Source: Anaerolineae bacterium (GTDB taxonomy: Bacteria > Chloroflexota > Anaerolineae > S140-20). From it: a stretch of 51,785 nt of DNA. Each line of letters starts with the position of its first letter. Positions within the stretch are counted from its first letter, which is position 1. The stretch lies in the NCBI GenBank assembly GCA_027021705.1, contig JALUTT010000049.1, positions 1-51,785 on the forward strand, written 5' to 3'. The translations under genes were made by a program, and so were the position numbers. Positions 5,990 to 51,596 of the stretch are shown in pieces. The notes beneath the pieces are model-generated. The model was not told the origin of the DNA. It ran no database searches and worked only from the letters and a program-made list of their open reading frames with translations.

Positions 5990-8900
5990 GACGTCTCGGC
6001 CTGGGGCTGGGCCTCGCTCTTCTGGCCTGGCTCTCTCTCTTCACCCTGTTGAGTCGCTTCTCCGCGCCGGTGGAAGCGTCTCCTACCCTGTCTTCCGAGA
6101 TGGCCGTCTCCCGATCCCAATCGCCTGACCCGCAGGCCCCGCCCTCCCTCTGCTTCTGGCGGGATGGCGAGCCCTTCTGCCGTCCGGTGGTGCGGGCCGC
6201 CGGCACCGCATCCCCCACCGTCTGGGCGATGCTGGATGCCCTCTTGGCCGGCCCCTCCCCCCAGGAGCAGGCCCAGGGGATCGTCACCGCCATCCCCGCT
6301 GGGACCCGGCTGGAGGGGCTGGCCCGCCGGGGGGATGTCATCACCCTCTACCTGCGGCTGGAGGCCCCTGACCAACTGGACTTCGAGACGGTGGAAGCGA
6401 CCGTCGAGCAGATCGCCCGGACCCTGGACTCCTTGGGCTACGACCACGTCCGCCTCCTGGCCCGGCCCCCCGATGGGGCGTGGAGGCCCCTTTCCGCCTA
6501 CCTCCCGCCGCTGCCCCTGCCGCGCAAGCCCCTGGGGGATGGGGCGGCCCTGGGGACCGCTTCCCTGGGCCAGCCCCCCGCCGAGGGCCGCCGTCAGGCC
6601 AGCGGGGGCCTCAGCGGGAAGACGGTCTACGTCAGCGCCGGCCACGGCTGGCTCTGGAACGGCAGCGCCTGGCGAACCCAGCGCCCGCCCTATCAGCAGA
6701 TCATCGAGGACCACAACAACGCCGAGGTGGTCAACCAGTTCCTGCTCCGTTACCTGTGGAACGCCGGCGCCGACGTCTGGCCGGTGCGGGAGCGGGATAT
6801 GCACGCCGTCGCCGTCGTCGCCGACGATGCCGACGCCGGCTTCCGCACCGTCGGCACCTGGACGACGGTCAGCAGCGGGGGCTACGGGGGGGGCTACCGG
6901 ACGGCCACCGCCCAGGCCACCGCCTCCCTCACCGCCACCTGGACCTTCACCCTGCCCGAGAGCGGGGTCTACGCCCTTTACGTCTGGTATCGCGCCGGGG
7001 CCGACCGAGTCCCCGACGCCCGGTACGCCGTCCACCATGCCGGCGGCGTCACCACCGTCTCCGTGGACCAGCGGGTTCACGGCTCGACCTGGCGCTACGT
7101 GGGCACCTTCCCCTTCCGGGCCGGGCAGCCGGCCACCGTCACCCTGAGCAACGGGTCGGCCCAGCCCGGGGCCGTTGTCGTCGCCGACGCCATGCGCGTC
7201 GGGGGAGGCACCTTCGACGACCTGACCGGCATCGAGACCTCGGCCACCTACCCGCCCGACAAGCCCTGGTGGGAGATGGGGGCCTACTACTACGTCCAGC
7301 ACCAGGGGCTGGACCCCAATGACTGGCCCTACTTCAACGACGTCGTCGCCCGCCCGATGTACGCCCGCTGGGAGCACGCCGACACGGGCGAGGAGGCCGT
7401 CTACATCGCCTGGCACACCAACGGCTACAACGGCGACAACACCCTCTACCGGGGGACCGAGAGCTACATCCACAGCTTCCAGCCGGTGACCGGTTCCGAC
7501 CGGCTCCAGTACTGGGTGCACCAGGAGTTGGTCCGCGACATTCGGCTGGGCTGGGACCCCGCTTGGACCGACCGGGGGATGAAGAGCAAGGACCTGGGGG
7601 AGCTGCGGGAGCTGTGGGATGCACGGGGACCGGCCTACAGCATCCCCGGCGTCCTCTTGGAGATCGCCTACCACGACAACGAAGCCGATGCCAACGCCCT
7701 CAAGGATCCCCGCTTCGCCCTCCTGGCCGCCCGTGCCGTCTATCAGGGGATCGTCAAGTACTTCGAGGAGAAGGAGGGCGTGGACCTGACGTTGCTGCCG
7801 GAGCCGCCGACCCACCTGGTGGCCCGCAACAGCGGCGTGGGCCAGGTGACGCTGAGCTGGCGTCCCCCGCCGACGGACACGGCGGGGTTGCTGGGCGACC
7901 CGGCCACCGGCTACCGCCTCTACGTGGGCAGCCTGGCCGATGGGGATGGCTCCCTCGTGGCCTGGGGGGATGCCATCCCGGTCACGACGACCTCCTACAC
8001 GCTGACCGGCCTGGAGGCCGACCGTCTCTACTTCTTCAAAGTGACGGCGACCAACGCCGGGGGCGAGTCCTTCCCCACGCCGGTGCTGGCCGTGCGCACC
8101 AGCCCGACCGGGGAAGCGGCCTACCTCCTCGTTCAGGGCTTCGACCGCATTGACCGCTTCGCCCTCCTGCCGGAACAGGACCCGGTCGAGGGGGACAACC
8201 TGCGGATGTTCCTGGGGCGGATGAACGGCTACGACACCATCATCGCCCACGCCGTCGCCCTGACCCGCGCCTTCGACAGCGCCCTCAACGAGGCGGTGGC
8301 CGACGGCGATCTCTCCCTGGGGCTCTACCCGGTGGTGGATTGGATCCTGGGGGAGGAGTCCACGGTGGACCGGACGCTGGACGGCGCCGAACAGTCGGCT
8401 CTGACCGCCTTTCTGGATGGGGGCGGGGCTCTCTTCCTCAGTGGCAGTGAGGTGGGCTGGGACCTGGAGGCGAGCGGCAACGGACAGGATTTCTACCGGA
8501 ACTACCTACGGGCCGGCTACGTGGGCGACGACGCGGGCACCTACGCCGTCCTGCCCACGGCGGGGGGCATCTTCGCCGGGATGGGGGGCTTCCGCTTCGA
8601 CGAGCCGACGGCCTACGACGCCGATTTTCCCGACCAACTCAGCGCCCTCAACGGCAGCACGGCCGCCCTCACCTACGACGGGGGGAACGGCGGCGTGGCG
8701 GCCCTCCAGTACGCCGACGGCTGCCAGCGGCTGGTCTACTTCGGCTTCCCCTTCGAGACCATTGCCGGGGCTGCGACGCGGGCGACGGTGATGGCCCGGG
8801 TGATGGATTTCCTGGATGCGTGCGTCAGTCAGGCTCCCCAGACGGCCATCACCTCGCCGGTCAGCGGCCTGGCGACCAACCGCCCCCCCACCTTCGGCGG

Positions 8901-10913: not shown

Positions 10914-11137
10914 GTGGTCGGGTGGTCGCTTGGTCGAGTGGTCGAGTGGTCGGATGGTCGGGTGGTCGCTTGGCCCCTGCCCCTTGTCCCTTGCCCCTTG
11001 TCGCTTGGTCGGATGGTCGCTTGGTCGGGTGGTCGCTTGGCCCCTGCCCCTTGTCCCTTGCCCCTTGTCGCTTGGTCGGATGGTCGCTTGGTCGAGTGGT
11101 CGGATGGTCGGATGGTCGGGCAGTCGGCGGTCGGTGA
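10914..11137. repeat. Tandem octamer (TGGTCGNN) and heptamer (CCCCTTG) repeat tract
   Basis: Many TGGTCG[GG/CT/AG/GA] units interleaved with duplicated CCCCTGCCCCTTGTCCCTTGCCCCTTG blocks. Confidence 0.9.
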
Positions 11138-15893: not shown

Positions 15894-17543
15894 ATGGTGA
15901 CCATCCGACAGGTGCTGACCGACATCTCCCTGCTGGCCGAAGCCCGCGTGGTCGCCGGGGCCCCCGGCCTGGACCGGGAGATCGGCTGGCCTCAGATCGT
16001 GGACATCCCCGGCGTCGCCGAGTGGCTGCACCAGGGTGACCTGCTTCTGACCACCGCCTTCGCCCTGCGGGAGCCACCTGATGAGCAACGGGCCTTGGTC
16101 CGGGCCTTACACGAGCGAGGAGTGGTCGGGGCCTTCCTCTCTGTGGGCCGCTATGCCCCCCACGTCCCCACCCCGATGCGAGAGGTGGCCGAGGCCCTGG
16201 GCTTCCCTCTGGTCGAGCTCCCCTGGCAGGCCCCCTTGATGGAGATCAGCCAGCAGATCTCCCGGCGCATCGTCAGCGAACACCGAGAGCTGCTGAGCCA
16301 GTCCCTCGAAATCCACCAGACGCTGACCCAGGCGGTGGCCGAGGGGCTGGGGCTCCAGGCGGTGGCCGAGATCCTGGCCCGCCTCCTGGACCGTTCGGTG
16401 ACCATCGAGGATGCCGACTTGCGCCTGTTGGCGGCGGCCACCGCCCAGGAGGTGGACCCGGCCCGACGCTGGAGCCTGGCTCACGGCCACACCCCCCACG
16501 TCATCCTGGAGCGTTTGCGGACCAGCGGCTTCTTCGAGGAACTGGCCCGTCAGCCTCGCCCCGTCCGCGTTGGCCCTTTCCCCGACCTGGGGATGACCGC
16601 CGAGCGGATCGTCGCCCCCATCGTCGCCGCCCGTGAGGTTCTGGGCTACGTCTGGGTGTTGGCAGGGGAGCGGCCCATCGTCCGCCTCGACTACGTGGCC
16701 ATCGAGCACGGCGCGACCGTCGCCGCGCTGATCCTGACCCGGGACCGGGCGGTGCGGGAGGCCCACGCCCACCGCCGCCGGGACCTGCTGGATGTGCTGC
16801 TGGCGGAGGAGCCTGGGCAGGGCCGGTCCCGCCGCGAGCGGTTGAGTCAGATGGCCGCGGCCGCCGCCCGGCTGGGCCTGGACCCGACCCGGCCCTACTG
16901 TGCCCTCCTGGCCCGAGGGGATCTCATCTCCGAAAGGCTGTTGGTCCAACTGGAATCCATCCTGGCGGCGCTGGTGGAGCAGAAGGATGGGCAGGGGCTC
17001 GTGGCTCGTCGCCAGGGCCACCTTATCCTGGTGGCCGATGAGACGTTGATGGCCCGCATCGAGGAAGCCCTGCCCGCCCGGATCGCGTCCTTGCCTGTTT
17101 TCATCGGCGTGGGCGAGCCGGTTCCTCTGGGCGACCTGGCCACCAGCTACGCCCAGGCGTGGGAGGTCACCGAGGTCCTGCATCGCTTGGGGGAGGGGCA
17201 GGGGCTGCGGACTTTCCGCTCTCTGGGCCTGCTTCACTGGCTCTACCGCCTACCCGCTGCCGTCCGCGAGGCCAATCCCTACCTGGCCCTGATCCGTCGG
17301 TTGGCCCAGGCCAACCCTGCGCTGGTCGAGACGCTGGAGGCCTACCTGGACCGGGGGGGGAACGCCGTGCAGACGGCCCGCGACCTCTACCTGCACCGTA
17401 GCACCCTTCTCTACCGCCTGCAGCGCATCAAAGAGCACCTGGGGGTGGACCTGGCGGACCCCGATGTCCGTTTGAACCTGCACGTGGCCCTGAAGGCGTA
17501 TCGGTTGGAAGGAGATACTGGGCAACGAATGGGGAACGAATAA
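15894..17543 (+). CDS. PucR/CdaR-family transcriptional regulator
   Basis: N-terminal PucR ligand domain (AGAPGLDREI..GDLLLTT), GAF-like middle, C-terminal HTH TARDLYLHRSTLLYRL. Confidence 0.93.
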   Translation: MVTIRQVLTDISLLAEARVVAGAPGLDREIGWPQIVDIPGVAEWLHQGDLLLTTAFALREPPDEQRALVRALHERGVVGAFLSVGRYAPHVPTPMREVAEALGFPLVELPWQAPLMEISQQISRRIVSEHRELLSQSLEIHQTLTQAVAEGLGLQAVAEILARLLDRSVTIEDADLRLLAAATAQEVDPARRWSLAHGHTPHVILERLRTSGFFEELARQPRPVRVGPFPDLGMTAERIVAPIVAAREVLGYVWVLAGERPIVRLDYVAIEHGATVAALILTRDRAVREAHAHRRRDLLDVLLAEEPGQGRSRRERLSQMAAAAARLGLDPTRPYCALLARGDLISERLLVQLESILAALVEQKDGQGLVARRQGHLILVADETLMARIEEALPARIASLPVFIGVGEPVPLGDLATSYAQAWEVTEVLHRLGEGQGLRTFRSLGLLHWLYRLPAAVREANPYLALIRRLAQANPALVETLEAYLDRGGNAVQTARDLYLHRSTLLYRLQRIKEHLGVDLADPDVRLNLHVALKAYRLEGDTGQRMGNE

Positions 17544-17563
17544 ACGAATGGTGCGGGCGGGGA

Positions 17564-17745
17564 GTGCTGGGGAGACGCCCCGCCGTGAACCGGTGGGGCT
17601 GGGGGCTCTCCGCTGGGGGCTGGATCCCCCCAGCACCGGCTCTTCGAGGCCGGTGCGGCGACCGCAAAGCCCGTTTCGCCGCGACGCCGATGGGGCCGTC
17701 TGGGGAGACGCCCCGCCGTGGAACAGGCGGGGCTGGGGGGCTGGA
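17564..17745 (+). repeat. Left REP-like hairpin cluster flanking tnpA
   Basis: Two copies of hairpin A (CCCCGCCG-TG(G)AAC-CGGCGGGG) and one of hairpin B (GCACCGGC-TCTTCGAG-GCCGGTGC). Confidence 0.85.
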
Positions 17746-17782
17746 AAGCCAAGTAAACCAGCAAAGGTGAGGAAGCCGAACG

Positions 17783-18202
17783 ATGCCGTGGAATCTCGGT
17801 GAGAGCCATAAACCCAACCATAACAGCTATGCCCTCTACTATCACGTCGTCTTTGTCACCTATAAGCGGGAACCCCTGATTGACAGGGAGATCGCAGCCT
17901 TCTTGAGGGAATTCTTCCCGGCCAAATGTGCCGAATTGGAAGTCCATCTACTGGAGCAGGGGATTGTATGCGATCACGTTCACCTCCTACTCAGCCTGCG
18001 TCCTGTCCATTACATCCCAGAGGTTCTCAACTATCTGAAAGGGGCCTCCGCACACGAGGCGAACAACCACCACGACTTCCGAAATGTGTTGCGCTGGATG
18101 CGCGGTTATCACATTGATACGGTCAGCAGGCGGACCTTGGAATCCGCGAAGCGGTATGTGAGGGAGCAGCACAAGCGTCACCCGGACAGGATGCCGACGT
18201 AA
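17783..18202 (+). CDS. tnpA: IS200/IS605-type HUH Y1 transposase (no tnpB)
   Basis: LYYHVVFVTYKR, HUH motif DHVHLL, LKGASAH, W-x-x-GY..TVS, catalytic YVREQ; 139 aa. Confidence 0.93.
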   Translation: MPWNLGESHKPNHNSYALYYHVVFVTYKREPLIDREIAAFLREFFPAKCAELEVHLLEQGIVCDHVHLLLSLRPVHYIPEVLNYLKGASAHEANNHHDFRNVLRWMRGYHIDTVSRRTLESAKRYVREQHKRHPDRMPT

Positions 18203-18214
18203 CCTGCCTGGAAG

Positions 18215-19105
18215 GCCGCCCCGTGAACCGGCGGGGCTGGGGGGTGCTGGGGAGATGCCCCGCCGTGGAACCGGCGGGGCTAGGGGTGGCTGGGGAGCCG
18301 CCCCGCCGTGGAACCGGCGGGGCTGGGGGTGGCCAGGGAGCCGCCCCGCCGTGGAACAGGCGGGGCTGGGGGGTGCTGGGGAGCCGCCCCGCCGTGGAAC
18401 CGGCGGGGCTGGGGGGTGCTGGGGAGATGCCCCGCCGTGGAACCGGCGGGGCTAGGGGTGGCTGGGGAGCCGCCCCGCCGTGGAACCGGCGGGGCTGGGG
18501 GGTGCTGGGGAGCCGCCCCGCTGTGGAACCGGCGGGGCTAGGGGCTCTCCGCCGGAGGCTGGATTCCCCCAGCCCCGGCTCTTCGAGGCCGGTGCGGCGT
18601 CTGGCCGGATTCCCCCAGGCGACCGCAAAGCCCGTTTCGCCACGACGCCGACGGGGCCGTCTGGGGAGCCGCCCCGCCGTGGAACCGGCGGGGCTGGGGG
18701 TGGCCGGGGAGCCGCCCCGCCGTGAACCGGCGAGGCTGGGGGTGGCCGGGGAGATGCCCCGCCGTGGAACAGGCGGGGCTAGGGGCTTTCCGCCGGAGAC
18801 TGGATTCCCCCAGCACCGGCTCTTCGAGGCCGGTGCGGCGACCGCAAAGCCCGTTTCGCCACGACGCCGACGGGGCCGTCTGGGGAGCCGCCCCGCCGTG
18901 AACCGGTGGGGCTGGGGGTGGCCGGGGAGACGCCCCGCCGTGAACCGGCGGGGCTGGGGGGTGCTGGGGAGCTGCCCCGCCGTGGAACCGGCGGGGCTAG
19001 GGGTGGCTGGGAGGTCGCCCTGCCGTGGAACCGGCGGGGCTGGGGGTGGCCAGGGAGCCGCCCCGCCGTGGAACAGGCGGGGCTAGGGGCTTTCCGCCGG
19101 AGACT
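18215..19105 (+). repeat. Right array of ~16 co-oriented REP-like hairpins (~42-44 bp period) with two composite B/C inserts
   Basis: Unit GGGGAG(C/A)(C/T)GCCCCGCCGTGGAACCGGCGGGGCT(G/A)GGGG(G)TG..; copies counted by eye. Confidence 0.92.
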
Positions 19106-19600
19106 GGATTCCCCCAGCCCCGGCTCTTCGAGGCCGGTGCGGCGTCTGGCCGGATTCCCCCAGCCCCGGCTCTTCGAGGCCGGTGCGGCGTCTGGCCGGA
19201 TTCCCCCAGCCCCGGCTCTTCGAGGCCGGTGCGGCGTCTGGCCGGATTCCCCCAGCCCCGGCTCTTCGAGGCCGGTGCGGCGTCTGGCCGGATTCCCCCA
19301 GCACCGGCTCTTCGAGGCCGGTGCGGCATCTGGCCGGATTCCCCCAGCCCCGGCTCTTCGAGGCCGGTGCGGCATCTGGCCGGATTCCCCCAGCACCGGC
19401 TCTTCGAGGCCGGTGCGGCGTCTGGCCGGATTCCCCCAGCACCGGCTCTTCGAGTGCGGCGTCTGGCCGGATTCCCCCAGCACCGGCTCTTCGAGGCCGG
19501 TGCGGCATCTGGCCGGATTCCCCCAGCACCGGCTCTTCGAGGCCGGTGCGGCATCTGGCCGGATTCCCCCAGCACCGGCTCTTCAAGGCCGGTGCGGCAT
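19106..19600 (+). repeat. 46-bp tandem repeat x11, each with hairpin B, no spacers
   Basis: GGATTCCCCCAGC(C/A)CCGGCTCTTCGAGGCCGGTGCGGC(G/A)TCTGGCC starting at 19106, 19152, 19198, 19244, 19290, 19336, 19382, 19428 (41-bp variant), 19469, 19515, 19561 (partial). Confidence 0.95.
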
Positions 19601-19642
19601 CACGGACCCGCCGCGAGCAGGGGAAAGCTGGAGGGCATTCTG

Positions 19643-20782
19643 GTGTCCTTGGAAGTGAAAAGCTTGGTGCAGCGGTTCCGGGACGTTGCCTTCGACCTTG
19701 TCGGCGTCACGCCGGCCCGGCCTGCGCCTCACCGGGAAGCCTATCACCGCTGGCTCGCCCAGGGCTACCACGCCGGGATGGCCTACATGGCCCGCCCCGA
19801 CCGGGTGGCCCGCCGCGACGATCCTCGCCGCATCCTGTCCGACGCCTGCTCCATCGTCGTCGTCGGCCTCAACTACGCTACCCTCCAGCCTTCGCCCGAG
19901 CAGGTCCAGGATCCCGCCCGGGGGCGCATCGCTCGGTATGCCTGGGGGGCCGACTACCACGACCTGATGTTGGAGCGGCTGGAGCGGATGGCGACCGCCA
20001 TCGCCCAGGAGCTGGGCCGTCCCATCCGCTACCGGGCCTATGTGGACACCGGCCCGGTGCTGGAACGGGACTACGCCGCCGAAGCGGGGCTGGGCTTCAT
20101 CGGGAAGAACACTTGCCTCATCCACCCCCGACGGGGCTCCTGGTTCTTCTTGGGCGAACTCCTGCTGGATGCGACGCTGCCCTACGACCGTCCGCTGACA
20201 GGGATCGGCTGTGGCACCTGCAGCCGCTGTCTGAACGCCTGCCCTACCGGTGCTTTCCCAGCACCCTACCAACTGGACAGCCGGCGCTGCATCTCCTACC
20301 TGACCATTGAGCATAAAGGGAGCATCCCTCGCGACCTGCGGCCCCGGATGGGCAACTGGATCTTCGGCTGTGATCTCTGTCAGGAGGTCTGCCCCTGGAA
20401 CCGCTTCGCCCGCCCTACCGGAGAGCGGGCTTTTTTTCCTACCTCGCCGGAGCGGATCGCGCCCTCCCTGCTGGACCTGATCACCCTGGACGAAGAGGCG
20501 TTCCGTCGCCGCTTTCGGAACACGCCGCTCTGGCGGCCCCGACGCCGAGGGCTGCTGCGCAACGTGGCCGTCGCCATCGGCAACTGGGGGGATCCCAGCG
20601 CCGTCCCCGCCCTCGTTCGGGCCCTGGCCGATCCGGAGCCGCTGATCCGGGAGCACGTCGCCTGGGCGCTGGGACGGATCGGCACGCCGGCCGCCCGCCG
20701 GGCCCTGCGGGACGCGCTTCGCCGGGAGTCGGTGCCCGAGGTGCGGCAGGAGATCCAGCGCAGCCTGGACCTTTCCCCATGA
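19643..20782 (+). CDS. queG: tRNA epoxyqueuosine(34) reductase with C-terminal HEAT repeats
   Basis: IARYAWGADYH, YVDTGPVLER, GFIGKNT, CGTCSRCLNACP, GCDLCQEVCPWN; start GTG after SD GGAGG. Confidence 0.95.
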   Translation: MSLEVKSLVQRFRDVAFDLVGVTPARPAPHREAYHRWLAQGYHAGMAYMARPDRVARRDDPRRILSDACSIVVVGLNYATLQPSPEQVQDPARGRIARYAWGADYHDLMLERLERMATAIAQELGRPIRYRAYVDTGPVLERDYAAEAGLGFIGKNTCLIHPRRGSWFFLGELLLDATLPYDRPLTGIGCGTCSRCLNACPTGAFPAPYQLDSRRCISYLTIEHKGSIPRDLRPRMGNWIFGCDLCQEVCPWNRFARPTGERAFFPTSPERIAPSLLDLITLDEEAFRRRFRNTPLWRPRRRGLLRNVAVAIGNWGDPSAVPALVRALADPEPLIREHVAWALGRIGTPAARRALRDALRRESVPEVRQEIQRSLDLSP

Positions 20783-39971: not shown

Positions 39972-42900
39972 ATGAAAGCCCGATGGTCCGTGTTCGTCAG
40001 CCTCGTCATCCTCGTCGTTGTGGTCCTCCCAAGTGGATGGAGGGCCACCCGATCCTCCGAGCCGGCCAACCGCGACCGCGCGGAGGTCTCCTTGGGACCG
40101 TTACCCCTCTACTTCATCGCCAACCAGGGCCAGGTGGACGAGCAGGTGGCCTTTTACATCAAGGGGCAGGATAAGCTGATCTACTTCACTGCCGAAGGCG
40201 TTACGTTCGTGCTGGCGGAACGTCCCTCCCCTGACGATAGGCGGGTCTCCTTCCCTAATCTACGCCTTCCGCCTTTGGCCGATCACGACACACGGCCTGT
40301 CCATCGCCGTTGGGTGGTGAAGCTGGACTTCGTGGGAGCCAACGCAGGGGTGCGCCCCATAGGGGAGGAGAGGACCAGCACCACCTTTTCGTTCTTCAAG
40401 GGCCCCCCGGATCAGTGGCACACCGGCGTTGCCACCTACCGTCGTATTGTCTACAAGGAGCTGTGGCCGGGGATTGACCTGGTCTTCTACGGCACCGTGG
40501 ATCAGATGAAGTACGAGTTCGTCGTCCATCCGGGGGCTGATCCGGGGCGGATCGGGCTGGCCTATCGGGGGGCGGAGGTGAGGCGGAACGGGGCCGGGCA
40601 ATTGGAGGTGCGCACACCGATGGGCGGCTTCACCGACGAACTCCCCACAGCCTACCAAGAGGTGGGGGGACGCCGCTTCCCTGTCGCCGTCGAGTACGCA
40701 CTGCGTGTTACCGACCGCTCACCTTCCACGACGCACCTGGCTTTCAGCCTGGGCGACTATGATCCCACCCTTCCCCTCATCATAGATCCCGCCATCCTGG
40801 TCTACAGCGGCTACGTCGGCGGCTCGTCCAGCGATACGGGCAAGGATGTCGCTGTGGATGGGGCGGGGAACCTCTACCTGGTGGGGGATACCTGGTCGTC
40901 CGAGGACGAGGGCTTTCCGGTGGTTGTGGGACCGGACCTCTCCTTCGGCGGGGTGACCGACCTCTTTGTGGTCAAGGTGCGTGCCGATGGGACGGGATTG
41001 GCCTACGGTGGCTACATCGGGGGTTCGGATTACGATTGGGGGTCCGGCATCGTCGTGGACGGGGCGGGCAACGCCTACGTGGTGGGTTCGACCAAGTCCT
41101 CCGAGACCGACGGCTTCCCCGTGGTCACGGGGCCGGACCTGAGCCACAACGGCGGTGTGGACCTCTTCGTGGCCCGGGTGCGGGCCGATGGGATGGGGTT
41201 GGACTACAGCGGCTACCTCGGGGGCTCAGGGGATGACTATGGCGCCGGCATCGCCATAGATGGATCCGGGCGGGTCTACGTGGTGGGGTATACCTACTCA
41301 TCCCAGTCCGATGGTTTTCCCATAGCTGTTGGGCCGGACCTGACCTTCAACGGCTCCTACGATGCCTTCATCGCCAGGGTGAAGGCCGACGGGACGGGGC
41401 TGGACTACAGCGGCTACATCGGCGGTTCGAAGGGGGATGCGGGCCAGGATGTCGTCGTGGACGGGGCGGGTAACGCCTATGTGGTGGGGTATACCGATTC
41501 CTCGGAGTCCGATGGCTTCCCCGTGCTCGTGGGGCCAGACCTGACCTACAACGGCGGACGGGATGCCTTCGTGGCCCGGGTGCGGGCCGATGGAACGGGG
41601 CTGGACTACAGCGGCTACATCGGCGGCTCGGAGAGCGACTCCGGCCAGGGCATCGCTGTGGATGGAGAGGGGAATGTGTACGTGGTGGGCGATGTCCAGT
41701 CTTCAGAGTCCGAGGGTTTCCCCGTGCTTGTGGGGCCAGACCTGACCTTCAATGGATGGCGGGATGCTTTCATCACCCGGGTGCGGGCCGGTGGAACGGG
41801 GCTGGACTACAGCGGCTACATCGGCGGTTCAGGCGATGACCACGGCACCGACATCGCCATAGGCGGGGATGGGAAGGTCTACCTGGTGGGGTATACCTGG
41901 TCCTCAGAGGCGGATGGCTTTCCTGTGCTTGTGGGGCCGGACCTGACCTACAACGGCGGATGGGATGGCTTTATCGCCCAGGTACGGGCCAATGGGACGG
42001 GCTTGGACACCTGCGGCTACATTGGTGGTTCGGATGATGACGCCATCTTCGGCATTGCGGTGGATGGGGCGGGGAACGCCTATGTGGGTGGGAAGGCTTC
42101 CTCATCCGAAGGGGGGGGCTTTCCCGTGCTTGTGGGGCCGGACCTGACCTACAACGGCGGCAACTCGGACGCCTTTGTGGCCAAGGTGGCTACCATAGGG
42201 CCTACGCCGACGCCCACCGCGACCCCTGTACCCACGTCCAGCCCGACCTCTACGCCCATGCCCACGTCCACGCCTGCTCCTACCTCCACACCGACCCCTG
42301 GCCCCACGGCACCGCCACCAACACCGGTGCCGGAGAGGCCCTCCCTCGACAACGTCCGCTCCTGTTTCATCGGTCCCTTCTACCTGAAGGGTGTCTGGCT
42401 GCCGAACCGCTATGATGCCTTCGTGGACTGGCGGGGCGCGACCCCCGGTTATGTGGAGTTCACCCTCAACGGGGTCACCAGTCAGGAGCCGGCCTCCGGC
42501 AATCCTGTCTCTCACGTTTACAATATGGGCAGCGATCTCCGCTACGGCCTCCTGGGTGTCCGCAACGAACTGCGCGTTCGAGCGGTCACCAAGGATGGGC
42601 GGACCTCCCCTCCCCGCACGTTGCGTCCTATCGGCATCCGGCCCCCCTGGTGGTTGCCCGTTCAGCCGGTCGTGCTCAATCCTGGGTGCCTGGAAGGAGA
42701 GGCAAAATACAAATTTGTGGGAATCCACTTCCCTGAACCGCCTTTTGAAGGCAAAGTCACCCCGCCATCCTGGTTCCCGTACATCGGCGGCCAATCCTTC
42801 GGCGTCCGGGAAACCCAGGCCGGCCTGGAAGTCGAGGTCACCAGCGCCGGCAACGGCTTGGTCAAGCTCTCCGGCCAGACGGGATTCGGTGCTGCAGGGC

Positions 42901-46001: not shown

Positions 46002-50540
<4,539 letters not shown>

Positions 50541-50656: not shown

Positions 50657-51596
50657 ACGGCGGGAGACACGAAGGGCACCAAGAGCTCAAAGAGCACAAA
50701 GCGGTGCAAAAGTCTGGACAAGCCCTCTTGGGAGCGCCAACCTCCCATCCGTTCCAAATCCGTTCAATCCGTTCCCAATCCGTTGACAGCTCATCCGCTC
50801 CGGCCACGGCGGGAGACACGAAGGGCACCAAGATCTCAAAGAGCACGAAGCGGTGCAAAAGTCTGGACAAGCCCTCTTGGGAGCGCCAGCCCCCCATCCG
50901 TTCCAAATCCGTTCAATCCGTTCCCAATCCGTTGACAGCTATCCGTTCTCCAATCCGTTGACAGCTCGTCCGCTCCGGCCACGGCGGGAGACACAAAGGG
51001 CACCAAGAGCTCAAAGAGCACAAAGCGGTGCGAAAGTCTGGACAAGCCCTCTTGGGAGCACCAGCCCCCCATCCGTTCCAAATCCGTTCAATCCGTTCCC
51101 AATCCGTTGACAGCTATCCGTTCTCCAATCCGTTGACAGCTTGTCCGCTCCGGCCACGGCGGGAGACACGAAGGGCACCAAGAGCTCGAAGAGCACGAAG
51201 GGGTGCGAAAGTCTGGACAAGCCCTCTTGGGAGCGCCAACCTCCCATCCGTTCCAAATCCGTTCAATCCGTTCCTCAATCCGCTGACAGCTATCCGTTCC
51301 AAATCCGTTCAATCCGTTCCCAATCCGTTGACAGCTATCCGTTCTCCAATCCGTTGACAGCTCGTCCACTCCGGCCACGGCGGGAGACACGAAGGGCACC
51401 AAGAGCTCAAAGAGCACGAAGCGGTGCGAAAGTCTGGACAAGCCCTCTTGGGAGCACCAGCCCCCCATCCGTTCCAAATCCGTTCAATCCGTTCCCAATC
51501 CGTTGACAGCTATCCGTTTCCCAATCCGTTGACAGCTCATCCGCTCCGGCCACGGCGGGAGACACGAAGGGCACCAAGAGCTCAAAGAGCACGAAA
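50657..51596. repeat. Tandem array of ~175-bp units (5 full + 1 partial) with nested AATCCGTT submotifs
   Basis: Unit starts (ACGGCGGGAGACAC) at 50657, 50806, 50981, 51156, 51377, 51552; lengths 149, 175, 175, 221, 175. Confidence 0.95.

Follow-up and report, generated by a model that had tools for sequence, protein, structure and literature searches.

The 51,785-nucleotide stretch analysed here (hereafter the window) is the entire contig C49 (JALUTT010000049.1) of an Anaerolineae bacterium (GCA_027021705.1), whose genome (G000) amounts to 5.19 Mb in 183 contigs at 66% GC. At its centre of interest stands tnpA (17783..18202, + strand), a gene for a 139-amino-acid Y1/HUH enzyme of the IS200 type (DHVH as the HUH motif, YVREQHKRH around the tyrosine), which is surrounded by a large number of small hairpins of two kinds, A and B. 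A strict pattern recovers 17 A and 14 B copies in the window, besides one truncated A, and nhmmer finds 18 A and 14 B. Of these, only two A and one B are to the left of tnpA, and all remaining copies to its right. As A and B were defined by a first-pass annotation of the window, made from the letters alone, all copies of both lie on the + strand. The hairpin counts of that annotation (about 18 A and 14 B, with 2 + 1 on the left) are thereby reproduced, as is its description of tnpA as a lone gene, since tblastn detects a single copy in the genome and the next match, on contig C14, is only 35% identical.

The left part of the locus opens with a hairpin A (17578..17598, − strand), a repetitive extragenic palindromic (REP)-like palindrome whose foot tag, C(C/T)AG, lies on the − strand and appears on the + strand as CTGG after the hairpin. 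It is followed by a hairpin B (17634..17658, + strand), the inverted subtype of the same REP, with CCAG 5' of its foot on the + strand, by a linker segment C (17659..17710, no strand assigned) and by the left hairpin A closest to the start codon (17711..17732, − strand, found by the pattern). Segment C recurs at 18620-18668 and 18839-18887, and these three places, all at this locus, are its only ones genome-wide. Directly past the stop codon of tnpA lies the truncated hairpin A (18215..18236, − strand, found by both the pattern and nhmmer), after which come a head-to-tail array of seven A units with a period of 43 nt (18258..18537, − strand), a mixed block in the order B, C, three A, B, C, five A (18573..19082, no strand assigned), and a head-to-tail array of 11 B units with a period of 46 nt (19118..19597, + strand), one unit of which lacks 5 nt. 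Tandem Repeats Finder counts 7.6 copies of the 43-nt repeat at 18221-18544 and a further 9.9 copies at 18663-19089, and it delimits the 46-nt repeats at 19106-19598 (10.8 copies, 96% matches).

Superimposed on these units is a higher-order structure. The composite A-B-C-A module, which had been reported once to the left and twice to the right of tnpA, was located at 17578-17732 and at 18516-18693 and 18757-18911, the mixed block holding the latter two. Block duplications of 152 nt and 222 nt are present, the longer one relating 18397-18618 to 18942-19163 at 94% identity. The 5' and 3' flanks of each hairpin stay constant irrespective of the unit before it, and hairpins of the two kinds adjoin in every combination (A-A, A-B, B-A and B-B). 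The copy numbers within the arrays derive from a short-read metagenome assembly, and the public contigs of four sequencing runs break inside the repeats, none spanning the arrays. A joint in run X2 that apparently skips tnpA (from 17657 to 18300, with two letters between) was set aside as belonging to another locus, because its linker is of the B-to-A type of the array on contig C88.

Hairpins A and B had been presented as two co-oriented families, and were in this respect set apart from the inverted REP pairs that flank REP-associated tyrosine transposases (RAYTs). This contrast has to be given up. Per-locus consensus sequences were derived for ten sets (two from the window's genome and eight from related loci), and in all ten consensus pairs B was closer to the reverse complement of A than to A itself (225 of 382 positions versus 160 of 382). 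Because the stems are palindromic they are uninformative on the kinship of A and B, and the signal is carried by the loops and the foot: A has a GTGAAC-type loop and then CTGG, inverted B a CTGAAG-type loop and then the same CTGG. In one relative the loop of inverted B is identical to that of A, the extra G in the loop that is a variant of the window's genome is seen both in A and in inverted B, and nhmmer and blastn differ over some isolated sites, which the former assigns to A on one strand and the latter to B on the opposite one. One stem difference is constant in all ten sets (CCGCC in A versus CCGGC or CCAGC in inverted B). The tag at the 5' foot, read by the REP convention, is CCAG or CTAG in nine of the ten B consensus sequences and TCAG in the other, not GTAG. 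Judged by these consensus sequences, B is an inverted, diverged copy of A and not a second co-oriented family, so that the 'same orientation' holds for the two labels only; the arrays are therefore like bacterial interspersed mosaic elements (BIMEs), with tnpA lying between inverted REPs, i.e. in the classical layout of a REPtron. The palindrome itself also shows signs of structure. Stem pair 6 is G-C, C-G or A-T in 16, 14 and 10 distinct sequences respectively, which amounts to compensatory change, and folding is better than that of shuffled sequences for hairpin A (z −3.4) and for the A-B doublet (z −2.9 and −4.0 on the two strands).

Nor are the hairpins private to this locus: tnpA is single in the genome, and A and B also form arrays on other contigs. 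About 66 A and 69 B matches were obtained with nhmmer (E ≤ 1) in the genome, 32 of them at this locus, and the copies are concentrated in about seven arrays, the others being on contigs C73, C117, C88, C92, C139 and C161. Those on C73 and C117, both at contig ends, are probably one array. The relative orientation of A and B is constant in every multi-copy cluster of the genome, the arrays occupy gaps between coding-like open reading frames (ORFs), and the 16-mers flanking tnpA occur 33 and 26 times in the genome.

Repeats of other kinds were encountered beside the other Y1-like genes of this genome. The only other Y1 gene (C14:15600-16530; 35% identical, with the signature Y---Q--HH) has directly upstream about five tandem copies of a hairpin-containing repeat of about 100 nt, of which one 16-mer occurs 16 times genome-wide, and just downstream another repeat family, with one 16-mer present in 117 copies. 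A short-unit family containing GAACGGATTG is found at 284 sites in 77 clusters genome-wide, including the right end of the window (50657-51547), and lies within 400 nt of both this C14 gene (at 16560-16620) and a 291-amino-acid Y1-like ORF on contig C44 (at 8580-8620).

Regarding the enzyme, profile hidden Markov models (HMMs) place tnpA in Pfam Y1_Tnp (84.4 bits) and above the cut-off of the IS200/IS605 model of NCBIfam (NF033573, transpos_IS200; 89.5 bits, cut-off 55), whereas its score against the RAYT model REP_Tyr_transpos (29.2 bits) is well below the cut-off of 80. The closest solved structures are TnpA proteins of IS200/IS605 elements (2F4F, 2EC2, 2XM3 and 2A6M, i.e. Sulfolobus proteins, ISDra2 and IS608; E 1e-12 to 1e-9), and E. 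coli TnpA-REP is absent from the eight solved-structure matches at E ≤ 1. A tree of 149 rows and 149 kept columns (LG+G4, by a quick method that leaves many forks open) was built from nine clade members, 124 single-domain representatives, the C14 paralogue, three tnpB-linked IS200 genes of plasmids, and as RAYTs E. coli rayT together with 11 Anaerolineae proteins that score higher than the curated cut-off. A branch with support 100 separates the 12 RAYTs from the window's tnpA, which belongs to a clade of 11 rows (support 99) on the IS200 side; the three tnpB-linked references fall outside a 129-row group (support 91) that contains this clade.

The motifs follow the same division. The tyrosine motif is Y---NP in all 12 RAYTs and plain Y---Q in the three tnpB-linked references, and tnpA reads YVREQ. 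The extended form Y---Q--HH or Y---Q--xH is present in nine of nine clade members and in 105 of the 124 nearest representatives, the clade itself being split between Y---Q--HH (four of nine) and Y---Q--RH (five of nine, the window's tnpA among them). H65, H67, Y125 and Q129 are invariant across 27 aligned sequences, the W motif of the clade takes the form W-M or W-T, and only about 14 residues follow the tyrosine. With HMMs, solved-structure matches, tree and Y---Q motif in concordance, the enzyme is by its sequence IS200-type and not RAYT-type, in agreement with the first-pass annotation, which had called it IS200-like and without tnpB and had proposed its placement in a Y1_Tnp phylogeny. Numerous proteins of 270-299 amino acids (P0069 among them) carry two tandem Y1 domains, and one of these, of 280 amino acids, matches tnpA at E 2e-76.

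The behaviour of tnpA is unlike that of an insertion sequence (IS). Sequencing depth is 79 over the gene versus 69-70 over its flanks (in the run covering 85% of the sampled words), and while 1921 of 72,556 plasmid records matched tnpA, every one of them did so below 60% identity. The clade is compact, with about 67 clusters of at least 62% identity that are nearly all 139 amino acids long, the next protein being 46% identical, and only two of 1.84 billion representatives reached E ≤ 1e-30. Ratios of non-synonymous to synonymous substitution (dN/dS) among eight intact genes were 0.03-0.12 in the 10 of 28 pairs with computable dS, synonymous sites being saturated in the other 18, which indicates that the clade gene is under strong purifying selection. 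Recent horizontal transfer, considered on account of a protein identity of 86% between families, was dropped, as synonymous sites are saturated. Two clade copies within one metagenome-assembled genome (MAG) differ by a dS of 0.40; in another MAG, the one that also holds L019, the second clade gene (L020:3001-3416) is frameshifted about halfway and still has A-B doublets on its flanks. In the class, the clade gene was found in six of 401 sampled genomes, spread over five families; its neighbourhood differs between genomes. Classical RAYTs are common there (57 of 151 sampled genomes have one above the cut-off), and none was detected in the window's genome at E ≤ 1e-20.

The association of the gene with the hairpins recurs in its relatives. 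For this comparison 34 clade loci were scanned with a single orientation-free hairpin motif; the contig of the window is among them, two of the loci are near-duplicates of each other, and some organisms may be represented twice. Copies on the + and − strands alternate in these 34 loci. The motif lies within 600-700 nt of the gene at 33 of the 34 loci, the exception having only 49 nt of upstream sequence; it is found inside the gene at none of the 34, and farther out at five. The first-pass annotation had named tnpA homologues lacking these repeats as an observation that would speak against it; instead, the amplified hairpins to which it had tied tnpA accompany its relatives. The copy closest to the start codon is on the − strand at 22 of 31 loci and that closest to the stop codon on the + strand at 26 of 33, so that the gene is typically bracketed by inverted copies, as RAYT genes are, and a contrast to inverted REP pairs is again not borne out.

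At the level of genomes, all six class genomes with the gene among the 401 sampled are rich in hairpins (6-41 matches to the hairpin-A pattern), whereas only three of the 395 without it reach six matches, and reversed-pattern controls gave 0-1 per strand. The dispersed copies inspected in two relatives are for the most part lone A-B doublets within longer miniature elements from which the gene is absent. Among the dispersed copies of G018 (L049-L056) the miniature element around the doublet is bounded by inverted repeats of about 20 nt, so that a composite repeat carries the hairpin pair there. More distant homologues, of 31-34% identity, lie in L078 (G126:C58) and L007 (G032:C322), each with a multi-hairpin module of its own (about 100-130 nt) in direct copies on both sides; both modules differ from A and B.

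Following these results, it is probable that the locus is REPtron-like, i.e. that a resident, single-copy ssDNA (single-stranded DNA) endonuclease-ligase of the IS200 branch of Y1/HUH enzymes lies here surrounded by the REP-like palindromes cognate to it. What the sequences show is that a Y1/HUH gene which is conserved, intact and present once is paired with a structured repeat, and that the two inverted subtypes of this repeat occur beside the gene as well as elsewhere in the genome. The repeat is one GC-rich hairpin of 7-8 bp whose loop is of the GTGAAC type and one foot of which bears the C(C/T)AG tag. Its two subtypes are opposed, and from the sequence comparison A corresponds to the iREP and B to the REP, a parallel to y and z2 in E. 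coli. In relatives A-B doublets are scattered singly, and in the window's genome they are piled up into BIME-like intergenic arrays, the largest of which surrounds tnpA.

By analogy with IS608, ISDra2 and E. coli TnpA-REP, the enzyme would bind the folded hairpin on transiently single-stranded DNA, on whichever strand has the tag, cut near the tagged foot by means of its tyrosine, and rejoin the cut ends between neighbouring or distant copies. Such cutting and joining would allow hairpin modules or doublets to be moved, shuffled, amplified, added or removed, with the gene remaining outside the mobile unit. The 43-nt and 46-nt arrays may then reflect head-to-tail amplification of single modules, either by cut-and-join or by unequal recombination or slippage. 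The constant hairpin flanks and the occurrence of all junction types fit site-specific cut-and-join. Rolling-circle-like amplification, the putative route proposed for this array by the first-pass annotation, is no new mechanism, being already one published model of BIME growth (PMC3333891).

Several observations weigh against this interpretation. The 152- and 222-nt block duplications are what would be expected from enzyme-free unequal recombination, and the 5-nt deletion in one B unit is equally well expected from unequal recombination or slippage. The link between enzyme and hairpin is one of co-occurrence in sequence, and the array copy numbers, coming from a short-read assembly, are provisional. 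Hairpin B alone (in the window's CCCC variant, with a mismatched stem) folds no better than its shuffles (z −0.38). Three genomes (G005, G032 and G338) have 6-15 A-type hairpins and no detected clade gene, which means either that hairpins can persist without it or that the assemblies miss the gene; homologues in these genomes are only 31-36% identical or lacking, and those present are flanked by repeats other than A or B. Finally, the variable neighbourhoods and the patchy presence across five families imply that the gene moves or gets lost, and it is therefore less 'domesticated' than E. coli rayT.

These points have to be set against three other explanations. That tnpA is an ordinary autonomous IS200 element, with B and A as the subterminal hairpins of its left and right end, locally duplicated, and with the scattered A-B units as derivatives in the manner of miniature inverted-repeat transposable elements (MITEs), would agree with an enzyme that scores as IS200/IS605 by HMM, solved-structure matches and tree, with a gene location that varies between genomes and a patchy distribution, and with the fact that B usually adjoins the start codon and A the stop. 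Such an element would hardly be expected as one copy, with no near-identical copies, no tnpB and no close plasmid relative, and the tnpB-linked references branch outside the 129-row group with the window's clade. The scattered units, moreover, run A then B with the gene outside, which is the reverse of a miniature element running from left end to right end. In IS200/IS605 elements such as IS608 and ISDra2 both ends are recognised on the same strand, whereas A and B are related by inversion. An ordinary element is accordingly quite improbable.

Alternatively, the hairpins could be structural or regulatory repeats of the host that expand by slippage and unequal crossing-over, with a Y1 gene that inserts into them by preference, as some insertion sequences do with REPs, and does not process them. 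Higher-order block duplications, the three of 395 genomes that are hairpin-rich without the gene and the intergenic arrays far from tnpA can all be read in this way, and a precedent exists in an insertion sequence of Pseudomonas putida that is reported to be inserted into REPs (PMC8450116). We nevertheless regard this explanation as unlikely, since hairpins accompany the gene in six of six genomes and at 33 of 34 loci, and since their sequence changes from genome to genome and yet remains beside the gene. In addition, the 31-36% identical homologues are flanked by different multi-hairpin repeats of their own, which fits cognate pairs of enzyme and repeat better than a target preference. The long homogeneous arrays might, lastly, be an artefact of short-read assembly, the real locus having few hairpins per side as in the relatives (mostly 1-10 per side). 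Contigs do break in the repeats, with no public contig spanning the arrays, and the arrays on C73 and C117 stop at contig ends. This is highly improbable in view of the summed word depth over the repeat bins, which in the best-holding run is 2-9 times the flank depth, as expected of many copies, of the ordered internal variants in the arrays, which are not a collapsed consensus, and of the arrays of 7-15 units that lie inside contigs C88 and C139. A resident enzyme with its cognate repeats thus remains the preferred interpretation.

The system is bounded by two genes that lie outside it, namely a gene for a PucR-family regulator (15894..17543, + strand) on the left and queG (epoxyqueuosine reductase; 19655..20782, start approximate, + strand) on the right; with these two as neighbours of tnpA, no tnpB is present at the locus. 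An empty-site comparison of the pucR-queG interval was precluded by distance, the three same-family genomes being only 42-57% identical at the protein level; one same-family genome has both pucR and queG, on separate contigs. Records encoding related genes are Anaerolineae and Thermoflexia MAGs (Chloroflexota), and the sequencing runs with most of the window are labelled hydrothermal vent metagenomes, runs with a small share of it being left out of account. Known RNA families gave no match at E ≤ 0.1 within positions 17000-20000 of the window, and phage records no DNA match. Three AACGAAT heptamers run across the pucR stop codon (17523-17552), just before the first hairpin, and the C88 array of the same genome (around 11000-11090) has inverse heptamers on one side and runs of TCAGTCC/TTAGTCC heptamers on the other. 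Elsewhere in the window, long tandem repeats at 48077-50264 and 40873-42161 (138 nt in 15.9 copies, and 201/402 nt) are probably coding sequence for repeat domains. Clustered regularly interspaced short palindromic repeat (CRISPR) arrays are present on contigs C54, C106 and C155; one repeat word recurs in them 245 times in all, every 73 nt, and their words are the most frequent 16-mers of the genome.

The REP/RAYT partnership is the textbook case of a domesticated bacterial transposase and is defined by one enzyme clade, with Y---NP and GTAG-tagged REPs. The same partnership of gene and repeat now appears on the IS200 branch, with a different foot tag and in a phylum for which it had no prior description. 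A wider claim, to which we would give not quite even weight, concerns the large group of short IS200-related Y1 enzymes with Y---Q--(H/x)H, which is reported as non-IS and as lacking partner repeats. It may consist not of insertion sequences and orphans but of resident enzymes that process repeats, a second and widely distributed line in which every enzyme has a multi-hairpin repeat to itself; partner repeats were found in three kinds of member, i.e. the Anaerolineae clade, the C14 paralogue and the 31-36% identical homologues of other genomes. If true, IS200-type transposases gave rise to the REP/RAYT lifestyle on two or more occasions, or else this lifestyle is older than the divergence of IS200 and RAYT enzymes. 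The locus also offers a compact test case (a 139-amino-acid enzyme and a 22-nt hairpin in two subtypes) for the choice of strand and cleavage site by Y1 enzymes, and for the question of whether the enzyme or recombination makes repeat clusters grow. For annotation it carries a warning, in that the label 'IS200/IS605 family transposase' in Chloroflexota may not mark a mobile insertion sequence.

Among enzyme groups, the closest to the window's tnpA, compared by published description, is TnpAY1 subclass 1.2 of Quentin, Siguier, Chandler and Fichant (2018, PMC6006769), which the available text describes as IS200-related and of low copy number, with Y---Q--HH and the entry 'REP: no', a WQ motif, a conserved C-terminal domain of 30 amino acids, and hosts among Cyanobacteria and Bacteroidetes. 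The window's clade is likewise short, IS200-related and low in copy number, and Y---Q--HH is present in part of it (four of nine members, the window's tnpA reading Y---Q--RH); unlike that description it has REPs, WM or WT instead of WQ, about 14 residues after the tyrosine, and a Chloroflexota host. Lacking the WQ motif and the 30-amino-acid tail, it is not filed in subclass 1.2. It also resembles, by description, IS200 Group 3 of Bertels, Gallie and Rainey (2017, PMC5581495), whose members are reported to be unduplicated and absent from plasmids, and to be flanked by 16-mers that occur often (21 times); tnpA has no duplicates and no close plasmid relative either, and its flanking 16-mers occur 26 and 33 times. 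No description of REP-like partners for this enzyme group was found in the literature searched, outside which lay most subscription journals and the supplements of PMC6006769 and PMC5581495, which may list such cases. With IS200/IS605 elements proper (IS608, ISDra2; subclass 1.1) the enzyme shares the Y1_Tnp fold, as predicted by sequence, DHVH, Y---Q and its small size, and by analogy hairpin substrates would be expected on single-stranded DNA. It differs from them in having no multiple identical copies, no tnpB and no plasmid record of at least 60% identity, and in that the repeated unit does not include the gene, whose flanking hairpins are mutually inverted.

The closest architecture is the E. 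coli REPtron (Ton-Hoang et al. 2012, PMC3333891), in which rayT (TnpA-REP) is associated with y, z1 and z2 REPs in BIMEs, y and z2 pairing in inverted orientation. In both cases a single-copy Y1/HUH gene is flanked by cognate palindromes, two REP subtypes pair inverted, a conserved tetranucleotide stands at one hairpin foot, tandem clusters contain similar copies per locus, and the same repeats are scattered between genes elsewhere. Of the features of REPs, BIMEs and REPINs (REP doublets forming hairpins), the locus shows short GC-rich extragenic palindromes in many copies, with two inverted copies as the basic unit. Of those of RAYTs it shows a single-copy gene flanked by palindromes that are also dispersed in the genome, and it lacks the GT[AG]G tag 5' of the hairpin foot, the Y---NP motif, a score above the cut-off of the RAYT model and a place in the RAYT clade. 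Compared with the E. coli system as it is described there, the window's enzyme lies on the IS200 side, outside the RAYT clade, with Y---Q and not Y---NP, the tag is C(C/T)AG in place of GTAG, the short stems pair perfectly and have no bulge, some long arrays consist of a single subtype, and the host belongs to the Chloroflexota. Tandem head-to-tail REP clusters are on record as well (Di Nocera et al. 2013, PMC3733652), those described in the available text being GTAG- or CGTC-tagged, and with RAYTs or no enzyme, unlike the ones found here. The first-pass annotation had proposed a REPtron class distinct from classical RAYT/REPIN systems; this stands as regards the branch of the enzyme and falls as regards the layout. 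The locus is therefore best taken for a partnership of the REP/RAYT kind with an IS200-type enzyme as its basis and with BIME-like clusters, and not for a new architecture; it departs from the REPtrons described so far in the branch of its enzyme (the IS200 side, with a signature like that of subclass 1.2), in its foot tag, in having short perfect stems, and in its phylum.

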